DNA of 64,000 nt. Source: an uncultured virus (IMG/VR IMGVR_UViG_3300024298_000009) (lineage: Duplodnaviria; Heunggongvirae; Uroviricota; Caudoviricetes). A program made the position numbers and the translations under genes. The notes under the pieces were generated by a model, which was not told the origin of the DNA, searched no databases, and saw only the letters and a program-made list of their open reading frames with translations. Position 1 is the first letter of the stretch. Each line of letters opens with the position of its first letter. The stretch lies in IMG/VR virus record IMGVR_UViG_3300024298_000009; one strand, written 5' to 3'. Shown here one piece after another: positions 49,474 through 56,612 of the stretch.

Positions 49474-50484
49474 ATGAATCTATTTAAAAAAGCCGCATGT
49501 TTTACGGATATACACTTTGGATTAAAATCAGGAAGCAGAACTCACAACATTGATTGTGAAGAATTTGTTAAATGGTTTTGTGATACTGCTAAAGAAGAAG
49601 GTGCAGAAACTTGCATCTTCTTAGGCGACTGGCATCACAATCGATCAACTACAGATGTTAGCACTATGAATTATACGGTGTCTAACCTAGAACGATTAAA
49701 CGCATCTTTTGAAAAAGTCTATTTTATTTTAGGCAATCACGATTTGTTTTATAAAGACAAACGAGAAATCAATTCAATTGAATTTATGCGATTGTTTCCA
49801 AATGTAACTCCTATTAAAGAACCCTTTACAGATGGAAATGTAACAATACTCCCTTGGTTAGTAGGAGACGAATGGAAAGATATTCCAAAAATTAAAAGCA
49901 AATATATTTTTGGACATTTAGAATTACCAAGCTTCTACATGAATGCTATGATTCAAATGCCCGATCATGGCCAGTTGCAAAGAAACCATTTTGTAAATCA
50001 AGATTATGTGTTTAGCGGGCATTTTCACAAACGCCAAGCTACAGGAAACATAGTGTATATTGGTAATGCATTTCCGCACAATTACGCCGATGCAGGTGAT
50101 GACGATCGAGGTATGATGTTATTAGAGTGGGGAGGCAAACCCCAATACAAAACTTGGGCTAATCAACCAGTATATCGTACCTACAAGCTAAGTCAAATAA
50201 TTGATACTCCCGACGCATTGTTAAGACCAAAAATGCATTGTCGTGTTACTATTGACTTACCTATTACATTTGAAGAAGCAAATTTCATTAAAGAGCAATT
50301 CATGCCGCAATACGATTTGCGAGAATTAATGCTTATTCCAGAAAAGGTAGAAGTTGAATCGAGTGCTTCGCCTATCGATATTGAATTTGAAAGTGTTGAT
50401 ACCATTGTTATCAATCAAATCAATGCTATTGAAAGCGACACATACGATAAAGGACTCCTATTAGAGATTTATAAAGAACTATGA
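49474..50484 (+). CDS. gp47: recombination endonuclease subunit, Mre11/SbcD-like
   Basis: Metallophosphoesterase motifs DIHFG, GDWHH, GNHD, GHLE, SGHFH. Confidence 0.92.
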   Translation: MNLFKKAACFTDIHFGLKSGSRTHNIDCEEFVKWFCDTAKEEGAETCIFLGDWHHNRSTTDVSTMNYTVSNLERLNASFEKVYFILGNHDLFYKDKREINSIEFMRLFPNVTPIKEPFTDGNVTILPWLVGDEWKDIPKIKSKYIFGHLELPSFYMNAMIQMPDHGQLQRNHFVNQDYVFSGHFHKRQATGNIVYIGNAFPHNYADAGDDDRGMMLLEWGGKPQYKTWANQPVYRTYKLSQIIDTPDALLRPKMHCRVTIDLPITFEEANFIKEQFMPQYDLRELMLIPEKVEVESSASPIDIEFESVDTIVINQINAIESDTYDKGLLLEIYKEL

Positions 50485-52259
50485 TTAAAATTAAGAATCT
50501 AACCGTAAGAAATTTCATGAGCGTGGGTAATCAAACTCAAGCCATCGATTTTGACCGTGGTCAATTAACTCTAGTCTTAGGTGAAAATCTAGATCTAGGA
50601 GGTGATGATTCTGGGGCTCGCAACGGTACGGGCAAAACAACTATCATCAATGGCTTGAGTTATGCGATCTACGGTCAAGCCCTGACTAATATTAAACGTG
50701 ACAACCTTATCAACAAGATTAATCAAAAGGGAATGTTAGTCACAATTAGTTTTGAAAAACACGGCGTTGAATATCACATTGAACGTGGTAGAAAACCAAA
50801 CTTGTTAAAATTTAGCATTAACGGTCAAGAACAAGAATTACAGGACCTTGACGAATCTCAAGGCGATAGTCGAGAAACACAAAAAGCAATTGAAGATGTA
50901 TTTGGTATGAGTCACGAAATGTTTAAACACATTTTAGCGTTGAACACTTATACTGAACCGTTCTTATCAATGAAGGCTGCTGATCAAAGAAGCGTTATTG
51001 AACAATTACTAGGTATTACACTTTTATCAGAAAAAGCAGAAAATTTAAAAGAACAAATCAAACAAACAAAAGATGCTATTACTTCAGAAAATACTAAAAT
51101 AGAAACAATTAAAGCTAGTAATGAACGCATTCAACAAAGCATTGAAGCGTTAGAGCGTAAACAAAAAATGTGGAACGATCAAAAAGAGTCCTCTCTTGAA
51201 AATATACTTAAAAGTATTGATCGTTTAATGCAAATTGACATTGAAGAAGAAATATCAAATCAACGAGCATTAGTTGAATGGAATAAAAACAAAAAAGAAA
51301 AAGATAACCTTAATTCTTTAATTGCTAAACAAACAGCGGCATTAGAAAAAGAACAAAAAGTCCTTTCTAAATTAGAAAAAGAGCTTATTAGTCTTGCAGA
51401 TCATAAATGCCATGCTTGTGGTCAAGAGTTACATGATGACAAACATGAAGAAATGCTTGTAGCAAAAGCTCAACAAGTTGAAGAAAGTAAAGGTTCTATT
51501 AACGAACACTTAGAAGAACTATCAACTCTTAACGAAGCAATGGCATTATTAGGTGAGCTAACTGCTTGTCCAAAAGTAACTTATGACAATTTAGAAGAAG
51601 CACTTAATCATAAAAACACATTAGATGGGTTAGAAAGAGATGCTACTATTAAAGAAGCAGAAGAAAACCCTTATGATGATCAAATCTTAGAATTAAAAAA
51701 TACTGCTGTTCAAGAAATTGACTGGAATAACCTAAACGAACTTGTAAGAGTTAAAGATCATCAGGAGTTTTTACATAAACTTTTAACAAATAAAGATAGT
51801 TTTGTACGTAAACGTATTATCGATCAAAACTTAGCATTCTTAAATCAACGATTAACTCATTATCTAGATAGAATAGGATTGCCTCATATTGTAGAATTTC
51901 AAAATGATCTTAGTGTTATTATTACTCAATTAGGCCAGGACCTAGATTTTGATAATTTAAGTCGAGGTGAACGCAACAGATTGATTTTATCTCTATCTTG
52001 GGCGTTCCGAGATGTGTGGGAAAATCTTTATCATCCTATCAACCTGTTGTTTATTGATGAGCTTGTAGACAGCGGCATGGATGCCAGCGGAGTAGAATCA
52101 AGTATTGCGGTACTTAAGAAGATGACTAGAGAAAGAAATAAAAATGTTTTCTTAATTTCTCACAGAGATGATCTAACAAATCGAGTAAATCATGTGTTAA
52201 AAGTTATTAAAGAAAACGGATTTACCAGTTACAGCAACGATGTGGAGATTATAGAATGA
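50481..52259 (+). CDS. gp46: recombination ATPase subunit, Rad50/SbcC-like
   Basis: Walker A NGTGKTT, coiled coil with CHAC zinc hook, LSRGE signature, LLFIDE Walker B, ISH. Confidence 0.93.
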   Translation: MIKIKNLTVRNFMSVGNQTQAIDFDRGQLTLVLGENLDLGGDDSGARNGTGKTTIINGLSYAIYGQALTNIKRDNLINKINQKGMLVTISFEKHGVEYHIERGRKPNLLKFSINGQEQELQDLDESQGDSRETQKAIEDVFGMSHEMFKHILALNTYTEPFLSMKAADQRSVIEQLLGITLLSEKAENLKEQIKQTKDAITSENTKIETIKASNERIQQSIEALERKQKMWNDQKESSLENILKSIDRLMQIDIEEEISNQRALVEWNKNKKEKDNLNSLIAKQTAALEKEQKVLSKLEKELISLADHKCHACGQELHDDKHEEMLVAKAQQVEESKGSINEHLEELSTLNEAMALLGELTACPKVTYDNLEEALNHKNTLDGLERDATIKEAEENPYDDQILELKNTAVQEIDWNNLNELVRVKDHQEFLHKLLTNKDSFVRKRIIDQNLAFLNQRLTHYLDRIGLPHIVEFQNDLSVIITQLGQDLDFDNLSRGERNRLILSLSWAFRDVWENLYHPINLLFIDELVDSGMDASGVESSIAVLKKMTRERNKNVFLISHRDDLTNRVNHVLKVIKENGFTSYSNDVEIIE

Positions 52260-52810
52260 TTTATGACTTTTATTATGTTAAAGAACTTTATACACCAGAA
52301 ATGTGTGAAGAACTCAGGACTTTAATTCTATTACATTATAATAGAGACGATTCTGTAAAAGATGTTCCTGCAGATGGAGCAACTAAAACTGCCGATGTAA
52401 AATTTATCAACAGAAAATTTATATCCCCCGAATTAGAAAAATTTTATGAATCAATTGGTGTTATTAACAACCTTGCTTTTAGATTTCATCTTGACGCAAT
52501 TGGGTACGAGTCAATATTAAGTTACAATACCTACGATTCTAAAACCAACGGCGAATATGATTGGCACACCGACGGGAGAAGAGATGGTATTAAGGATATT
52601 AAATTAACAGCATTACTAAACTTATCTGACGAACCGTATGAGGGCGGTGATATAAGTTTATTTTTCAACGGTCCTCATGTAATTGAAGAATTTAGATTGC
52701 CAGGAACATTGTTAGTTTTTCCTAGCTGGGTTCCTCATAAAGTTGATCCAGTAACCAAAGGCACTAGAAAAACACTTATTCAATTCTTTGAAGGCCCTCC
52801 TTTGTTATGA
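52256..52810 (+). CDS. 2OG-Fe(II) oxygenase (prolyl-hydroxylase-like)
   Basis: WHTD (HxD), YEGG, FPSWVPHKV.PV..G.R. Confidence 0.88.
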   Translation: MIYDFYYVKELYTPEMCEELRTLILLHYNRDDSVKDVPADGATKTADVKFINRKFISPELEKFYESIGVINNLAFRFHLDAIGYESILSYNTYDSKTNGEYDWHTDGRRDGIKDIKLTALLNLSDEPYEGGDISLFFNGPHVIEEFRLPGTLLVFPSWVPHKVDPVTKGTRKTLIQFFEGPPLL

Positions 52811-53037
52811 CAACAGAATCGCACGATCGTATGATTGCTGCTTTTCAGGAATATTTTAAGTGGCAAGAACGATTTGAATACAAAGGCTCAGATGAAGCAG
52901 GCATTAAGGCACGATATTGGCTATCAGAAATACGCAACGAGGCATCAAAAAGGCGAGTTGAGATACAAGAAAAACGCGAACAACGAAAGTTAGCCAGAAA
53001 AGGCATGGTTGGAAGACCGCCTAAAATAACTAAGTGA
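52807..53037 (+). CDS. hypothetical basic helical protein
   Basis: 76-aa ORF with ATGA overlap; abuts the GIY-YIG gene. Confidence 0.75.
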   Translation: MTTESHDRMIAAFQEYFKWQERFEYKGSDEAGIKARYWLSEIRNEASKRRVEIQEKREQRKLARKGMVGRPPKITK

Positions 53038-53472
53038 GTGCAATGGACGTATCAAAATCAACCAATAAACGAAATACCAGAAGGCTATATTGGCTTTGTT
53101 TATCTCATCACGAACACACAAACCGGGCAGAAGTACATAGGCAAGAAATTAGCACAATTTAAACGTACTAAACCACCACTCAAAGGCAAAAAACTTAAAC
53201 GTAGATCCGTAGTTGAAAGCGATTGGCGCGATTACTGGGGTTCTTCTGATAGGTTAAACGCAGACGTCCAAGCATTAGGTCCCGGAAACTTCACTAGAGA
53301 AATACTTTATCTTTGCAAATCCAAGGCAGAAATGTCCTATTTAGAGGCAAGAGAGCAGTTTGAACGCAGAGTTTTAGAAACTGACGAATATTATAATGGC
53401 ATTATAAACGTCAGAGTAGGCGGTTCAAACATACTAAGGCAACGCCTAGAAGAACATAAAAAGGCAAAATAA
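53038..53472 (+). CDS. stand-alone GIY-YIG family nuclease-like protein
   Basis: GFVYLITN...G.KYIGKK (GIY/YIG strands), YLEAREQ (Glu), YYNG (Asn); basic insert KRTKPPLKGKKLKRR; no C-terminal DNA-binding domain. Confidence 0.75.
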   Translation: MQWTYQNQPINEIPEGYIGFVYLITNTQTGQKYIGKKLAQFKRTKPPLKGKKLKRRSVVESDWRDYWGSSDRLNADVQALGPGNFTREILYLCKSKAEMSYLEAREQFERRVLETDEYYNGIINVRVGGSNILRQRLEEHKKAK

Positions 53473-53860
53473 AGCGGTTTTTGGCTAGCGCAGGCCTTAA
53501 CTTCATGCGCTCTAAACCTGGTCAATCGTGGTCGCAGGGACGGAATTCCATGCCGCAATGGTACTCAACTACTACCCATTTATGGATGAAGATCGCTTAA
53601 AACCTGCGATTTAGTTGTTTGAAAAGGATATGTAAAGGTAAAATGAGGGGAGAAAAACCCCACGTGTACATTAGTGATAGCAGATTAATGTATACCGCCG
53701 TTGTGTAAAGACGGAGCTCGAGGTACCGGACAACCGCCTCTGTAATGCTCTACTGCTGTGTGACATGGTTCGACTCGGATAATGTTTTTTCTTTGCCCGG
53801 CAACGGGCAAAGTGTGACTGAAACGATCTGGATAATGCTAAATTTGCGCTTCGCGCAAAA
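53473..53860 (+). ncRNA. candidate large structured non-coding RNA (family not recognised; boundaries approximate)
   Basis: Largest gene-free gap in the window and GC-richer than its flanks; at least eight hand-verified helices with G-U pairs on the + strand, a GCAA tetraloop and a pseudoknot pairing. Confidence 0.6.
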
Positions 53861-53946
53861 TATATTTCAACTGCATCTTTGAAATAATTAAAAAAAAGAA
53901 AAGTGCTTTGAGCGAAGCGATAAAGCAAGCGAGCGTTAGCTCGCTT
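53843..53946. repeat. cluster of inverted repeats including GC-GAA-GC mini-hairpins
   Basis: TTTGCGC-TTC-GCGCAAA (53843-53859), TATTTCAA/TTGAAATA (53863-53886), GCGAAGC (53912-53918), AAGCGAGC-GTTA-GCTCGCTT (53927-53946). Confidence 0.8.
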
Positions 53947-53951
53947 TTCAA

Positions 53952-53957
53952 TAAATA
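53952..53957 (+). promoter_or_regulatory. late promoter core TAAATA
   Basis: aTAAATA 26 nt ahead of ATG 53984. Confidence 0.55.
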
Positions 53958-53983
53958 AGTAGTATATCAATTTTGAGTCTTTT

Positions 53984-55501
53984 ATGAAAATATCAACATT
54001 ATTAGAAAATCATCAGTTACTTGTCGAAAGACATATGCACAACTCACGATTAATATTAGAGGAAAGCTGTGACGGTCTTAATAAGGAACAACGCAGAATT
54101 GTTGAAGGCATTTATAATGAAATGCTACCTCTTATCGAAGCTAGTCTAAGCCCTGAACAGGTTAAACAGGTATTTGGATCTGTAGAGCAAAGTGTAAGTG
54201 CAGGTGGTGGTAATAGAACAATGCTGGGCAAAGGCATCGATGTTGCTAAAAAAGCAGATGAAGTAGTTAATAAAGTTGGTAAATGGCTACAGGATACTAC
54301 GCCTGTTAAGAACATGGACCAAAAGTTTGAAGATTTAAAGGCTAAAGTTGGTGCTAAGTTTCCTGAGCTAGATAAAACTCTAACTGGATGGGGAACTTGG
54401 ATGAAAGAAAATCCAGGTAAGTCAGCAGCGATTATTGGTGTGCTTACCACTCTAGCAGCTCTTGCAGGTGGCCCAGTAGGTGGCGCTATTGCAGGTGCTA
54501 TTATTCGTAATTCGTCTGAACTAATCAAAGGCGAAAAACTTTCAACTACCATTGGCAAAGGTATTAAAACAGCAGCCTATGGTTTTATTGCTGGTAAGAC
54601 CTTTGAACTTATTGGCGATGCACTCAGTGGCGGAGTTGATATTATCAAAGATAATCTATTCCCTGGTGCTAGAAGATTAAACATGACTCAAATCTTTGAT
54701 GAAGTTGGGGGAGAGTTAGGATCACGTTCTGCTAACTTTGAAATTAAAGGACTAGTAGGACAACCAGCAGATATTGCAGATGCTAAAGAGTTATTCATGG
54801 ATGCTACTTCTGCTTGGCAAGCAGGAGATTATGCTCAAAGCGACAAGGTATGGCAAGTTCTTCAGGGCATGATTGATGATAAATTTAATAATCCAGAGTA
54901 TATTGCTCAGATTGCTGCCACAGCAGACAAGCGAGCAATGTTAAAATCTGCTGCCGAAGGTGCTAAAGAAGTGTTTAAATTCTTAGGCGCGGCTGCGCAA
55001 GGCGCAGTTGCAGCTGGTACAGGCAGCAAACAACCAAAACAAGAAAGTTATTATATTCAAACTAGACCTTTAAGTGAAGGTCAAGTATATCTAGTGTTTA
55101 ATCGTGTGTTATCAGAAGCTGGCTTTATGGACAAGGTTAAAGCTGGAGCAGGCAAAGCAGTTGATTGGGCCAAGACAAAAGGTCATAACATGACCACACA
55201 GGTCACGGCAGACAAGTTAAATTCTGCTTGGCAAAAAGCAGGTGCTCCTACAGATTCAGAAGAACTAGCAAAGTTTTTACAAGATCAGGGCATTGATGCA
55301 GGTATTGTTACACAAGTTTATAGTCAAATGAAACTACCACCACCCGGTCAGGGCGGTGCCGATCAAGGTGGCCAAGGTGGCGCCAATGGTAAAAAAACAG
55401 CTACACTATATGCAGAAGTTAAATCAGAGTTAGCTAAGTTAGATAAGAAAAGTAAAAAGCGTATCATGGGCTTCTTACAAAAACAATTAGGAACTGCTTA
55501 A
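53984..55501 (+). CDS. Ala/Gly-rich hypothetical protein, candidate internal head protein
   Basis: 505 aa; late promoter; several L-x-E sites near the N-terminus; hydrophobic AAIIGVLTTLAALAGGPVGGAIAG segment. Confidence 0.6.
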   Translation: MKISTLLENHQLLVERHMHNSRLILEESCDGLNKEQRRIVEGIYNEMLPLIEASLSPEQVKQVFGSVEQSVSAGGGNRTMLGKGIDVAKKADEVVNKVGKWLQDTTPVKNMDQKFEDLKAKVGAKFPELDKTLTGWGTWMKENPGKSAAIIGVLTTLAALAGGPVGGAIAGAIIRNSSELIKGEKLSTTIGKGIKTAAYGFIAGKTFELIGDALSGGVDIIKDNLFPGARRLNMTQIFDEVGGELGSRSANFEIKGLVGQPADIADAKELFMDATSAWQAGDYAQSDKVWQVLQGMIDDKFNNPEYIAQIAATADKRAMLKSAAEGAKEVFKFLGAAAQGAVAAGTGSKQPKQESYYIQTRPLSEGQVYLVFNRVLSEAGFMDKVKAGAGKAVDWAKTKGHNMTTQVTADKLNSAWQKAGAPTDSEELAKFLQDQGIDAGIVTQVYSQMKLPPPGQGGADQGGQGGANGKKTATLYAEVKSELAKLDKKSKKRIMGFLQKQLGTA

Positions 55502-55502
55502 A

Positions 55503-56612
55503 ATGAGATTAAATGAATTCATAACCGAAGATAAAGAACTTGCCGAAGGCCCATTGATGAATAAAATTGGTAGTGCAGTTGGCAAAGCTGTAGGAACTGC
55601 TGCCAAAGGCGTTGGCGCAGTTGCAGGTGGTATAGCTGGACTTGGTGCAGCCGCTAAAAAAGGATTTGCCGCAGGTAAAAGTACGGTAGCAGGTGCAGGA
55701 GATGACGAAGAGCCCGCACAAGGTCAAGCAGCAGGTGGTCAACAAGCAGCAGGTGGTGCCGGTGGTCAACAAGCAGCAGGTGGTCAAGGAGGCATAACTA
55801 AACGTCAAGTTGCTCAAGATATGTGGAAAAAAGGAAAGATTGGTCAAAATAATCCTTTCCTTAATGCAGCCAAGAAAGCAGGAATGCAAGATACAGATCA
55901 AGAAGAACCCGCACAAGGTCAAGCAGGAGGCCAACAACCGGCCGCTAGCGGACAACCAGCACCTGCAAAAGGAAAACCAGCAGCAGGCGGAGCAGCACAA
56001 CCTGATGCATCTGGAAGAATTGAACCAACTATGGAACCCGCACAAGGTCAAGCAGCAGGTGGTCAAGGACAAGATCAAGCTCAACAAGGCACGCCTTATG
56101 CACAGGTTAAAGCTAAGATTGCTAAACTAGATAAAAAAGGTAAACAACGAATCCTTGCAGGACTACAAAAAGAATTAGGCGCACAACCAGCAGCACAAGA
56201 AAAACCAGCAGCAGGCGGAGGTGCATTTGGACAAATGGCAGCAAACTTAGCCGGCGAACCAAATCCGGCAGTAAGCACTGGAACAAGCTCAACTGGTGGA
56301 ACAACATCAAAGGTTGGTGGAACAACAACCCATACAGCAAATCCAAACAATCCTAATATGCAACAACAACCAGCACCGGAACAGCCAGCTGCAACACAAG
56401 AACCCGCAGTTGAACCTACAATGCAGACAAAGAAACGTGCTCCGAGAAAATCAAGAGCTAAGGCTCCTGCTCAGCCTTCGGTGCAAGCCGCTGGCAAAGT
56501 TAACACAGGTAATCCTTTGGCAGAAGCACTTGAAAGAAAAATTGAAGAACACAAAAAGAAATTGTTCACCGAAAATGTTAAATCAGGTGCAACAAGTATT
56601 TTTAAAAAGTAA
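55503..56612 (+). CDS. low-complexity Ala/Gly/Gln/Pro protein, candidate internal head protein
   Basis: 369 aa; N-terminus MRLNEFITEDKELAEG; EPAQGQA repeats. Confidence 0.65.
   Translation: MRLNEFITEDKELAEGPLMNKIGSAVGKAVGTAAKGVGAVAGGIAGLGAAAKKGFAAGKSTVAGAGDDEEPAQGQAAGGQQAAGGAGGQQAAGGQGGITKRQVAQDMWKKGKIGQNNPFLNAAKKAGMQDTDQEEPAQGQAGGQQPAASGQPAPAKGKPAAGGAAQPDASGRIEPTMEPAQGQAAGGQGQDQAQQGTPYAQVKAKIAKLDKKGKQRILAGLQKELGAQPAAQEKPAAGGGAFGQMAANLAGEPNPAVSTGTSSTGGTTSKVGGTTTHTANPNNPNMQQQPAPEQPAATQEPAVEPTMQTKKRAPRKSRAKAPAQPSVQAAGKVNTGNPLAEALERKIEEHKKKLFTENVKSGATSIFKK

Follow-up and report, generated by a model that had tools for sequence, protein, structure and literature searches.

The subject of this study is a small nuclease gene and the non-coding RNA that follows it in a 64,000-nucleotide (nt) stretch of DNA from an uncultured virus (IMG/VR IMGVR_UViG_3300024298_000009). 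This stretch, referred to here as the window, comes from a longer IMG/VR virus record, 219 kb in length, of a T4-like phage. A first-pass annotation, made from the sequence alone, had proposed that the nuclease, of the GIY-YIG type, and a candidate structured RNA directly downstream may form an undescribed nuclease-RNA system. Here, we show that the RNA is real, lies on the strand of the nuclease gene, and has relatives with the same 3′ domains behind two unrelated nuclease folds. Two direct repeats within the RNA, R1 and R2, differ between lineages and change in concert. The main elements are as follows.

53038..53472, + strand: open reading frame (ORF) of the 144-aa GIY-YIG nuclease, a SegE-type catalytic domain alone
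53473..53862, + strand: the whole structured RNA, about 390 nt, defined by homolog profile, covariation and folding z-score
53483..53620, + strand: domain 1, Rfam family RF01718 (Polynucleobacter-1), 100.2 bits, model positions 1–141 of 141
53700..53751, + strand: core, comprising helices J, K and L, 95.6–98.1% paired
53771..53783, + strand: R1, first direct repeat, CGA CUC GG AUAAU, preceded by GUGUGAC (53758–64); variable positions match those of R2
53824..53836, + strand: R2, second direct repeat, CGA UCU GG AUAAU, preceded by GUGUGAC (53813–19); variable positions match those of R1

Conservation and fold of the RNA

The nuclease ORF ends at 53472. Up to the next conserved ORF, at 53984, there is a gap of 511 nt that begins, as had been noted, at the nuclease stop codon. 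Its description as the largest gap in the window (the next measures 212 nt) holds if a 99-aa antisense ORF at 53671–53970 is discounted, and fails otherwise. The frame of this antisense ORF is not conserved, the length differences among homologs being distributed 27/18/18 modulo 3. In blastn comparisons with relatives, the gap is conserved from about 53483 to about 53840 at 70–75% nucleotide identity, also where identity of the nuclease falls to about 55%.

For a broader view, 125 downstream regions were reduced to 82 at <93% identity and searched with an nhmmer profile. In 76 of these 82 regions, the RNA follows the nuclease stop codon immediately, starting 0–25 nt past it; it is full length in 63. 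Alignment A1, which combines these 63 homologs with the window (64 sequences), supports 69 base pairs in 14 helices, including three pseudoknots. Overall, 94.2% of the cells are paired, versus 33–46% when the partners are slid by 1–3 columns as a control. Both sides change in 52 of the 69 pairs (625 cells), and none of 500 shuffles reaches any of the observed covariation measures.

The strand can also be assigned. Folding of the + strand gives z = −2.18, with 3 of 100 shuffles as good, versus z = −0.24 for the − strand (40 of 100). G-U pairs are conserved at three positions, in 62, 64 and 48 of the 64 sequences; because such pairs fit the + strand only, the RNA must lie on the nuclease's strand, just as had been argued earlier from the G-U pairs in the window. 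No reading frame is conserved across the RNA region among homologs. In line with the first reading, the element is not recognised as a tRNA, tmRNA, RNase P RNA or group I/II intron: none of these matches 53300–54100 in Rfam at E values up to 10, and a search for tRNA and tmRNA genes finds none in the window. We conclude that 53473–53862 is a real folded RNA of the + strand.

Individual structural elements are listed below; "covariation" refers to A1.

53474..53477, + strand: 5′ strand tentatively paired with the P3 loop (53553–56), starting 2 nt past the stop codon and outside the Rfam model
53483–85/53494–96, + strand: helix P0, covariation
53488–92/53506–10, + strand: helix P1 (AGCGCA/TGCGCT), covariation
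53517–21/53533–38, + strand: helix P2, covariation
53548–51/53558–61, + strand: helix P3, weak, 66% paired
53566–71/53612–17, + strand: helix P4, covariation
53576–77/53584–85, + strand: helix P5, covariation
53591–96/53606–11, + strand: helix P6, covariation
53647..53661, + strand: hairpin P7 (GGGG/CCCC), 4/4 pairs change on both sides, 86.6% paired
53664..53695, + strand: P8, a 12-bp stem, 12/12 pairs change on both sides
53677–83/53753–59, + strand: pseudoknot PK8 (ATAGCAG/CTGCTGT) of the P8 loop with a downstream strand, 6/7 pairs change on both sides, 97.8% paired
53700–04/53730–34, + strand: helix J (GUUGU/ACAAC), crossing K and L
53713–17/53747–51, + strand: helix K (GGAGC/GCUCU)
53720–24/53736–40, + strand: helix L (GAGG/CCTC), enclosing near-invariant GGUACCGGACAACCGCC
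53791..53812, + strand: P9, a 9-bp hairpin between the repeats, at least 6 bp in 64/64 homologs, with 20 distinct 5′ strands
53843..53859, + strand: P10, hairpin with a UUCG loop, closing the conserved region on its 3′ side, at least 4 bp in 60/64, with many stem sequences; flagged as terminator-like

P9 and P10 were judged by folding each homolog separately, because MAFFT misaligns them. Six of the helices originally read from the window (P1, P7, P8, L, P9 and the loop pseudoknot) are upheld by covariation or folding, and three are not supported. In place of a long-range helix between GTCGCAGG and CCTGCGAT, Rfam and covariation give the local hairpins at 53517–38 (P2) and 53591–611 (P6); in place of CCGTT/GACGG and CGG-ACAA-CCG, covariation gives J and K. 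The invariant core of the 3′ part reads GGUAC..CAACCGCC.

Judging from the alignment, GCGG at 53474–77 likely pairs with the P3 loop. Covarying combinations in A1 include GCGG/CCGC, ACGG/CCGU, GCAG/CUGC and CGCCA/UGGCG, and one pair of columns reads GC in 32 sequences, AU in 9 and CG in 6. By column, only 57–76% are paired, because the 5′ end is poorly aligned. Around P5, the pyrimidines at 53575 and 53587 swap together (U/C in 33 sequences, C/U in 31), tracking the loop type; this could be either a non-canonical covarying pair or the signal of two clades.

The match of domain 1 to RF01718 (100.2 bits against a gathering score of 37) bears on the claim that the RNA is undescribed. That claim does not hold for the 5′ 140 nt, which are the Polynucleobacter-1 motif, and stands for the 3′ part of about 240 nt: nothing in Rfam matches 53620–53983. 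RF01718 is likewise found in five other loci that were scanned (L007, L023, L166, L178, L346).

Linkage of the RNA to two nuclease folds

The 144-aa protein matches PF19835 (SegE_GIY-YIG) with 124.6 bits (cut-off 25) over profile positions 1–123 of 123, and is assigned to phrog_447. The match spans residues 3–123, with no extra domain; the C-terminal DNA-binding domain that is the hallmark of Seg-type homing endonucleases is absent, and a K/R-rich insert is present. The protein is therefore the bare catalytic domain with a basic insert that the first reading had described. Family members measure 140–148 aa, save two of 151 and 161. Across 25 diverse sequences, 40 columns are invariant, among them Y22, Y33, G35, R87 and N120, while E88 and E106 are at least 90% conserved; a set of 120 sequences was also examined for these positions. 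The motif residues of the superfamily are the two Tyr of GIY and YIG, a Glu and an Asn, and the conserved positions may correspond to the catalytic residues of I-TevI. An AlphaFold2 model (pLDDT 86.5) predicts the insert as a β-hairpin. The best solved match in Foldseek is the I-TevI catalytic domain (1LN0/1MK0; probability 0.98–0.91, target-normalised TM 0.64 for the top hit), with weak E values of 0.07–0.27; a phmmer search of PDB sequences yielded nothing relevant.

Three scans of viral sequences connect this protein to the RNA; the three locus sets share contigs, and their counts are not independent. From the RNA side, the exact RF01718-core pattern occurs at no fewer than 119 viral loci, 116 of which have at least 190 nt upstream. 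A GIY-YIG ORF of 140–148 aa ends within 120 nt upstream, on the same strand, in 111 of these 116 listed loci, as first seen in the window. The nuclease is 840–880 nt upstream, with an extra ORF between, in three more, and is lacking in two (L023, L118). When the protein is the starting point, relatives of the nuclease are encoded in at least 596 viral stretches. Of the best 80, which were examined, 58 extend 450 nt or more downstream, and the R1/R2 pair is present in 55 of these 58. Finally, 74 listed matches to a domain-2 core pattern have sufficient DNA upstream; the nuclease lies within 450 nt in 64 of them, four have an inserted ORF, and six lack the nuclease. These six consist of four chance matches in unrelated ORFs, one contig edge (L255) and L282; the motif is thus linked to the nuclease in 64 + 4 of 70 real RNA loci.

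Locus L282 reveals a second nuclease. Exactly between a homolog of the 76-aa ORF that precedes the nuclease in the window and the RNA, a 188-aa PD-(D/E)XK nuclease replaces the GIY-YIG enzyme. It matches PF24608 with 104.8 bits (cut-off 27; profile 1–162 of 164) and falls in phrog_244. Relatives in cultured phages are annotated, and only annotated, as putative Holliday-junction resolvases. Of 38 viral loci with relatives of this enzyme, 24 have the 3′ domains of the RNA directly downstream on the same strand, and none has the GIY-YIG gene. A core pattern of this marine type hits 20 loci: 16 with the PD-(D/E)XK gene upstream, three by chance in coding DNA, and L383. The PD-(D/E)XK nuclease therefore precedes 16 of 17 real marine-type RNAs. 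RNAs of this lineage match no Rfam family, yet keep P8 and its pseudoknot, the core, P9, the GUGUGAC element and the repeat pair. Helices J and L still pair despite changed bases (GUUGG/CCAAC and AAGG/CCUU). Altogether, the 3′ domains occur behind two nuclease folds in freshwater and marine-type T4-like contigs, at least hundreds of them. In blastn searches of 50,697 phage records, the window RNA and a marine-type RNA had no match, so that these searches revealed no cultured carrier.

The genes around the RNA in the window are these.

49474–52259: gp47-/gp46-like genes, upstream of the nuclease block
52256–52810: 2OG-Fe(II) oxygenase gene
52807..53037, + strand: 76-aa ORF, basic at the C-terminus; its stop codon adjoins the start of the nuclease gene, and it is kept upstream of the nuclease
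53927..53950, + strand: small GC hairpin and T-run before the next gene, read from the sequence; a terminator scan gave no flag

The 76-aa ORF matches nothing in Pfam or PHROG. A homolog lies directly 5′ of the nuclease in the inspected loci L170, L177, L194, L196, L153 and L282, and an ORF upstream of the nuclease was recovered in 56 of 83 distinct loci. Similar hairpins (GAGC-loop-GCUC) precede the next gene in L194, L196 and L355. The genes after the RNA (53984–56612; 505 and 369 aa) encode proteins rich in G, A, Q and K, with low-complexity stretches, and neither has a Pfam or PHROG match. In both lineages, the end of gp46 lies upstream and a convergent baseplate-hub gene downstream. The intervening genes differ (2OG oxygenase and 76-aa ORF versus ORFs of 67 and 258 aa), as does the gene that follows the RNA (its product measures 505 aa in the window and 173 aa in the other lineage). 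Since the downstream gene differs between lineages, the link of the RNA is to the upstream gene. A homolog of T4 EndoVII (PF02945) was not matched in three related records, which are 53–76% complete, and the control genomes were likewise silent.

One explanation for these arrangements is that selfish homing endonucleases of two folds settled beside a highly conserved RNA gene and cut, in or near it, alleles that lack a nuclease, so that the linkage reflects homing. The SegE-type domain fits this idea, as do the unrelated contexts of the family in cultured phages (beside RNR, endolysin, tail tube or EndoV genes), the presence of two unrelated folds at the same site, and the extra ORFs at the same junction. 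Homing would not lead us to expect a nuclease that is nearly universal (114/116 listed loci and 16/17 of the marine type, with almost no empty alleles seen), nor an enzyme of constant length with 40 invariant columns and no DNA-binding domain. We consider homing improbable.

Parts of the window are present in six river metatranscriptome runs, and contigs of the four that were examined cover both nuclease and RNA. RNA-library contigs run across the stop codon into the RNA (X16 records 14 and 15; X17 record 22; X18 record 31), from which it appears that the two are co-transcribed. Such contigs may include carried-over DNA, and show neither ends nor levels. Across the nuclease and RNA, contig depth exceeds that of the flanks; this was not used, because related phages pile up on conserved parts. 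One X16 contig (depth 2.6) skips 72 nt at 53842–53915, an AT-rich spacer, and probably derives from a related phage that lacks this spacer.

Domain 1 behaves differently from the rest of the RNA. In bacterial genomes and metagenome-assembled genomes, the RF01718 pattern has 19 loci: 14 with domain 1 alone, two of phage type and three by chance. Carriers of the stand-alone form include Limnohabitans, Polynucleobacter, Comamonadaceae and others. In all five bacterial loci inspected (L208, L214, L218, L223, L224), domain 1 lies about 220–280 nt from a divergent DUF6641 gene (PF20346), a family on which a literature search found nothing, and an integrase of phage type is close by in L208 as well, an arrangement suggestive of a small integrative element. 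Conversely, GIY-YIG loci at 76–81% identity (the group of L170, L177 and L194) lack RF01718 and have the repeat module. At least two other 5′ domains replace Polynucleobacter-1 before the conserved 3′ part (L177, L194, L196, L349, L355), with no Rfam match where scanned. Because domain 1 occurs alone in bacteria and the 3′ part occurs elsewhere without RF01718, domain 1 is exchangeable, and it is the 3′ part that is linked to the nuclease.

Weinberg et al. 2010 (PMC2864571) list the Polynucleobacter-1 motif as a likely cis-regulator, read as a 5′-UTR element. In the window, the motif is the 5′ domain of an RNA that starts at a stop codon and measures about 390 nt, not a stand-alone 5′-UTR element of about 140 nt, and the next start codon lies 363 nt past the end of the motif, about 120 nt past the conserved region. 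A cis-acting role can be envisioned, in nuclease mRNA stability, 3′-end formation or translation, or in read-through into downstream late genes, the last corresponding to the 5′-UTR reading of 2010. The intergenic position of the RNA and the hairpins after it are in line with such a role, as is the published listing. On the other hand, some 390 nt with three pseudoknots and invariant junction nucleotides exceed the needs of a stabiliser, the upstream ORFs are unrelated between lineages, the downstream genes differ, and the distance to the next start codon is a further point against it. Cis-regulation accordingly has, in our estimation, a low probability.

The concerted repeats and the possible role of the RNA

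The repeats follow the patterns NNA-CUC-XY-AU-R-A-N (R1) and NNA-UCU-XY-AU-R-A-N (R2), the centres being always CUC and UCU, respectively. Within a given RNA, R1 and R2 are identical in 64/64 sequences at X (G in 39, A in 25), Y (G in 53, C in 9, A in 2) and R (A in 51, G in 13); the last N matches in 63/64, and NN in 57–58/64. Mapped onto a tree of the remaining columns, X has switched 12 times or more in either repeat, and 7/7 independent pairs are concordant (p = 0.016); for Y, the count is 5/5. One caveat is that block recombination could lower the true number of change events. Divergent GIY-YIG loci have a repeat pair of another sequence (ACAUGAA in both copies), and pairs in the PD-(D/E)XK lineage include AGGAAAUAGUUA twice and GGGGAAUA twice.

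No Watson-Crick partner covaries with R1/R2. Pairing of R1 with R2 (the UCGGAU/AUCUGG helix of RNAalifold) is progressively broken, when checked by hand, by the natural alleles AG, GC, GA and AC. The spacer before R1 can pair with the R2 core at −8 to −11 kcal/mol in some alleles, near zero in the AG class, with no compensation; spacer-spacer pairing holds, by eye, in the "UG" class only. The G/U-rich segment 53614–22 fits R in about 54/64 sequences with one mismatch or less and G-U pairs allowed, maybe by chance, and was rejected because such wobble tolerance would not enforce R1 = R2. A coding role or translational hop was also discarded: there is no conserved ORF, and the spacing of 47–58 nt and the lengths cover all residues modulo 3. 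Nor does the specificity of a protein appear to co-evolve with R, as neither the nuclease nor the 76-aa ORF has a column that goes with the XY allele.

We read R1 and R2 as one duplicated module, by which a sequence-specific partner would be offered two copies of one short single-stranded segment. The suggestion of a guide-like variable segment thus survives in part: a segment that varies between lineages does lie at a fixed position, and no complementary target was found for it. A true guide role, as one form of the partnership outlined next, seems unlikely to us.

Our leading reading, which we hold tentatively, is a functional partnership between nuclease and RNA. The multi-domain, pseudoknotted non-coding RNA would be made as the 3′ part of the nuclease transcript. 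Its 5′ domain, here the Polynucleobacter-1 motif, is exchangeable; its conserved 3′ part consists of P8 with the pseudoknot, the GGUAC..CAACCGCC core, and a tandem module of GUGUGAC, spacer, repeat R and hairpin. The RNA would work with the upstream nuclease, as a regulator or decoy or as an adaptor, and the two identical single-stranded R segments would contact a partner, probably a nucleic acid. Any contact between nuclease and RNA, like the nature of the partner, is inferred. In a bolder version, the 3′ two-thirds of the RNA would be a dedicated subunit of both nuclease folds, with R1 = R2 serving as a programmable recognition sequence of 8–13 nt for a dimeric or two-site enzyme; we give this version little credence.

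Several observations weigh against a partnership. A complement or third copy of R is present at no consistent place within the RNA or 2.5 kb; in the 219-kb record no complement is better than chance; and in 4–5 related records, which are phage records rather than host genomes, counts equal those of a reversed-pattern control. No residue of the nuclease or the 76-aa ORF follows the R alleles (top normalised mutual information for the XY allele, 0.38 and 0.53). Both folds, GIY-YIG and PD-(D/E)XK, are DNA enzymes as far as we know. The shared position at the end of the gp47–gp46 block could alone explain the adjacency in both lineages. The two components also occur apart. The GIY-YIG family is found in 761 phage records, and in all six cultured phages inspected (Melnitz, RHph_I1_18, S-SRM01, phiM12, ACP17, Moby) the nuclease is without RF01718, mostly with no room for it. 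An ORF of 257–308 aa separates nuclease and RNA in seven loci (L007/L016/L024 and L239/L246/L290/L294), which include at least two contigs counted twice. At L383:1300–1700, an RNA-like core with a repeat pair (CCGUUUAGCA twice) has no ORF of at least 60 aa for 1.1 kb upstream. Domain 1 occurs without nuclease or repeats in 14 of 16 real bacterial-genome loci.

Many of these observations would be expected if the RNA were an independent non-coding gene (for example a ribozyme, or an RNA that serves as a host-factor decoy or, by way of R1/R2, as antisense) held in place by synteny, with the neighbouring nuclease replaced once in a non-orthologous manner. The common gp46-end/baseplate-hub neighbourhood of both lineages, the nuclease without RNA, the tolerated insertions, the L383 RNA, the lack of protein-RNA co-variation and the use of domain 1 in other contexts all favor such a gene. 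It would leave unexplained that the nuclease stays directly before the RNA while other genes of the block vary, and that the first, tentative pairing begins 2 nt past the stop codon. We regard an independent gene as somewhat unlikely. As for the proposed nuclease-RNA system, then, a conserved, covarying RNA, strong linkage and two nuclease folds speak for it; nucleases without RNA, tolerated insertions, the missing target and, in part, the membership of the 5′ third in a known Rfam family speak against it, although this family covers only 140 of about 390 nt and is itself without a known function.

Extra ORFs in or at the nuclease-RNA junction include L007:1675–2448 (257 aa), L239:1574–2500 (−) (308 aa) and L255:616–1641 (−) (341 aa). 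The 308-aa ORF has a weak methyltransferase-like Pfam match, and the other two have none. The RNA of L383 adjoins a convergent 437-aa ORF.

Comparison with known systems

Searches of Rfam 15 and the literature returned nothing that describes the full RNA or its nuclease link. The 140-nt motif is already known; the full 390-nt RNA, its modular build, the link to nucleases of two folds and the concerted repeats appear to be new. Relative to Polynucleobacter-1, the window RNA has the same full model match, and P1, P2, P4 and P6 covary here too. It differs in being fused to about 240 nt of further conserved structure, in lying 3′ of a nuclease ORF, and in having an extra pairing 5′ of the model, whereas the bacterial motif stands alone by a divergent DUF6641 gene. 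A 16-year-old orphan Rfam motif is thereby recognized as one exchangeable domain of a larger RNA, and gains a genomic partner and a testable context.

Among T4 proteins, SegB is encoded amid stable-RNA genes. The nuclease described here has the SegE_GIY-YIG domain, and its best structural match is I-TevI. Unlike Seg-type enzymes, it lacks the C-terminal DNA-binding domain, has a near-constant length of 140–148 aa and is almost universal at a fixed site in this lineage. Seg-type genes are typically sporadic among close relatives and varied in insertion site; the present gene is nearly universal at one site in this lineage, but sits in unrelated contexts in the six cultured phages.

Ssn is a single-domain GIY-YIG nuclease (CDD cd10448) that cuts single-stranded DNA at short hairpin repeats scattered through the genome, according to Chenal et al. 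2025 (PMC11893778). As described there, the gene is flanked by the structured single-stranded element that Ssn recognizes, which resembles the present arrangement. A relative of the present nuclease is annotated as cd10444 (phiM12 record), however, and the element here is a single RNA-type fold of 390 nt with conserved G-U pairs.

A structured RNA with direct repeats beside a nuclease also brings to mind type III toxin-antitoxin systems. In ToxIN, the repeat RNA ToxI lies upstream of an endoribonuclease of another fold and neutralises it, and whole units are repeated. The RNA here could likewise neutralise its nuclease, but its repeated part is only 13 nt long, and the folds of the enzymes are those of DNA nucleases. 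A different parallel is T4 mobA and the bypass insert of gene 60, where a nuclease gene is accompanied by a non-coding insert that lies between matching triplets. R1 and R2 read XYA followed by UAA or UGA in every case; unlike in gene 60, there is no conserved frame around them, and their spacing, 47–58 nt, takes all residues modulo 3.

Finally, in OMEGA systems (IscB/TnpB, HEARO RNA) a sizeable structured RNA lies beside a small nuclease gene, the nuclease folds being RuvC and HNH. A structured RNA that adjoins a small nuclease gene and has a lineage-variable segment is common to the present case. Here, however, the folds are GIY-YIG or PD-(D/E)XK, and the segment that varies occurs twice inside the RNA instead of at its end; transposon ends were not observed, no target was found, and Rfam gives no HEARO match. 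Linkage of one RNA to two nuclease folds is usually the sign of a functional pair or of strong targeting to a site, and repeats that never differ from each other yet differ between lineages are an unusual signal that points to a sequence-specific partner. If the RNA does regulate or direct the nuclease, the two would make up a new kind of nuclease-RNA system; otherwise, the RNA still ranks among the larger structured phage RNAs without an assigned function. Should the bolder version with a dedicated RNA subunit prove right, nuclease-RNA systems would extend beyond the RuvC/HNH world of CRISPR and OMEGA.

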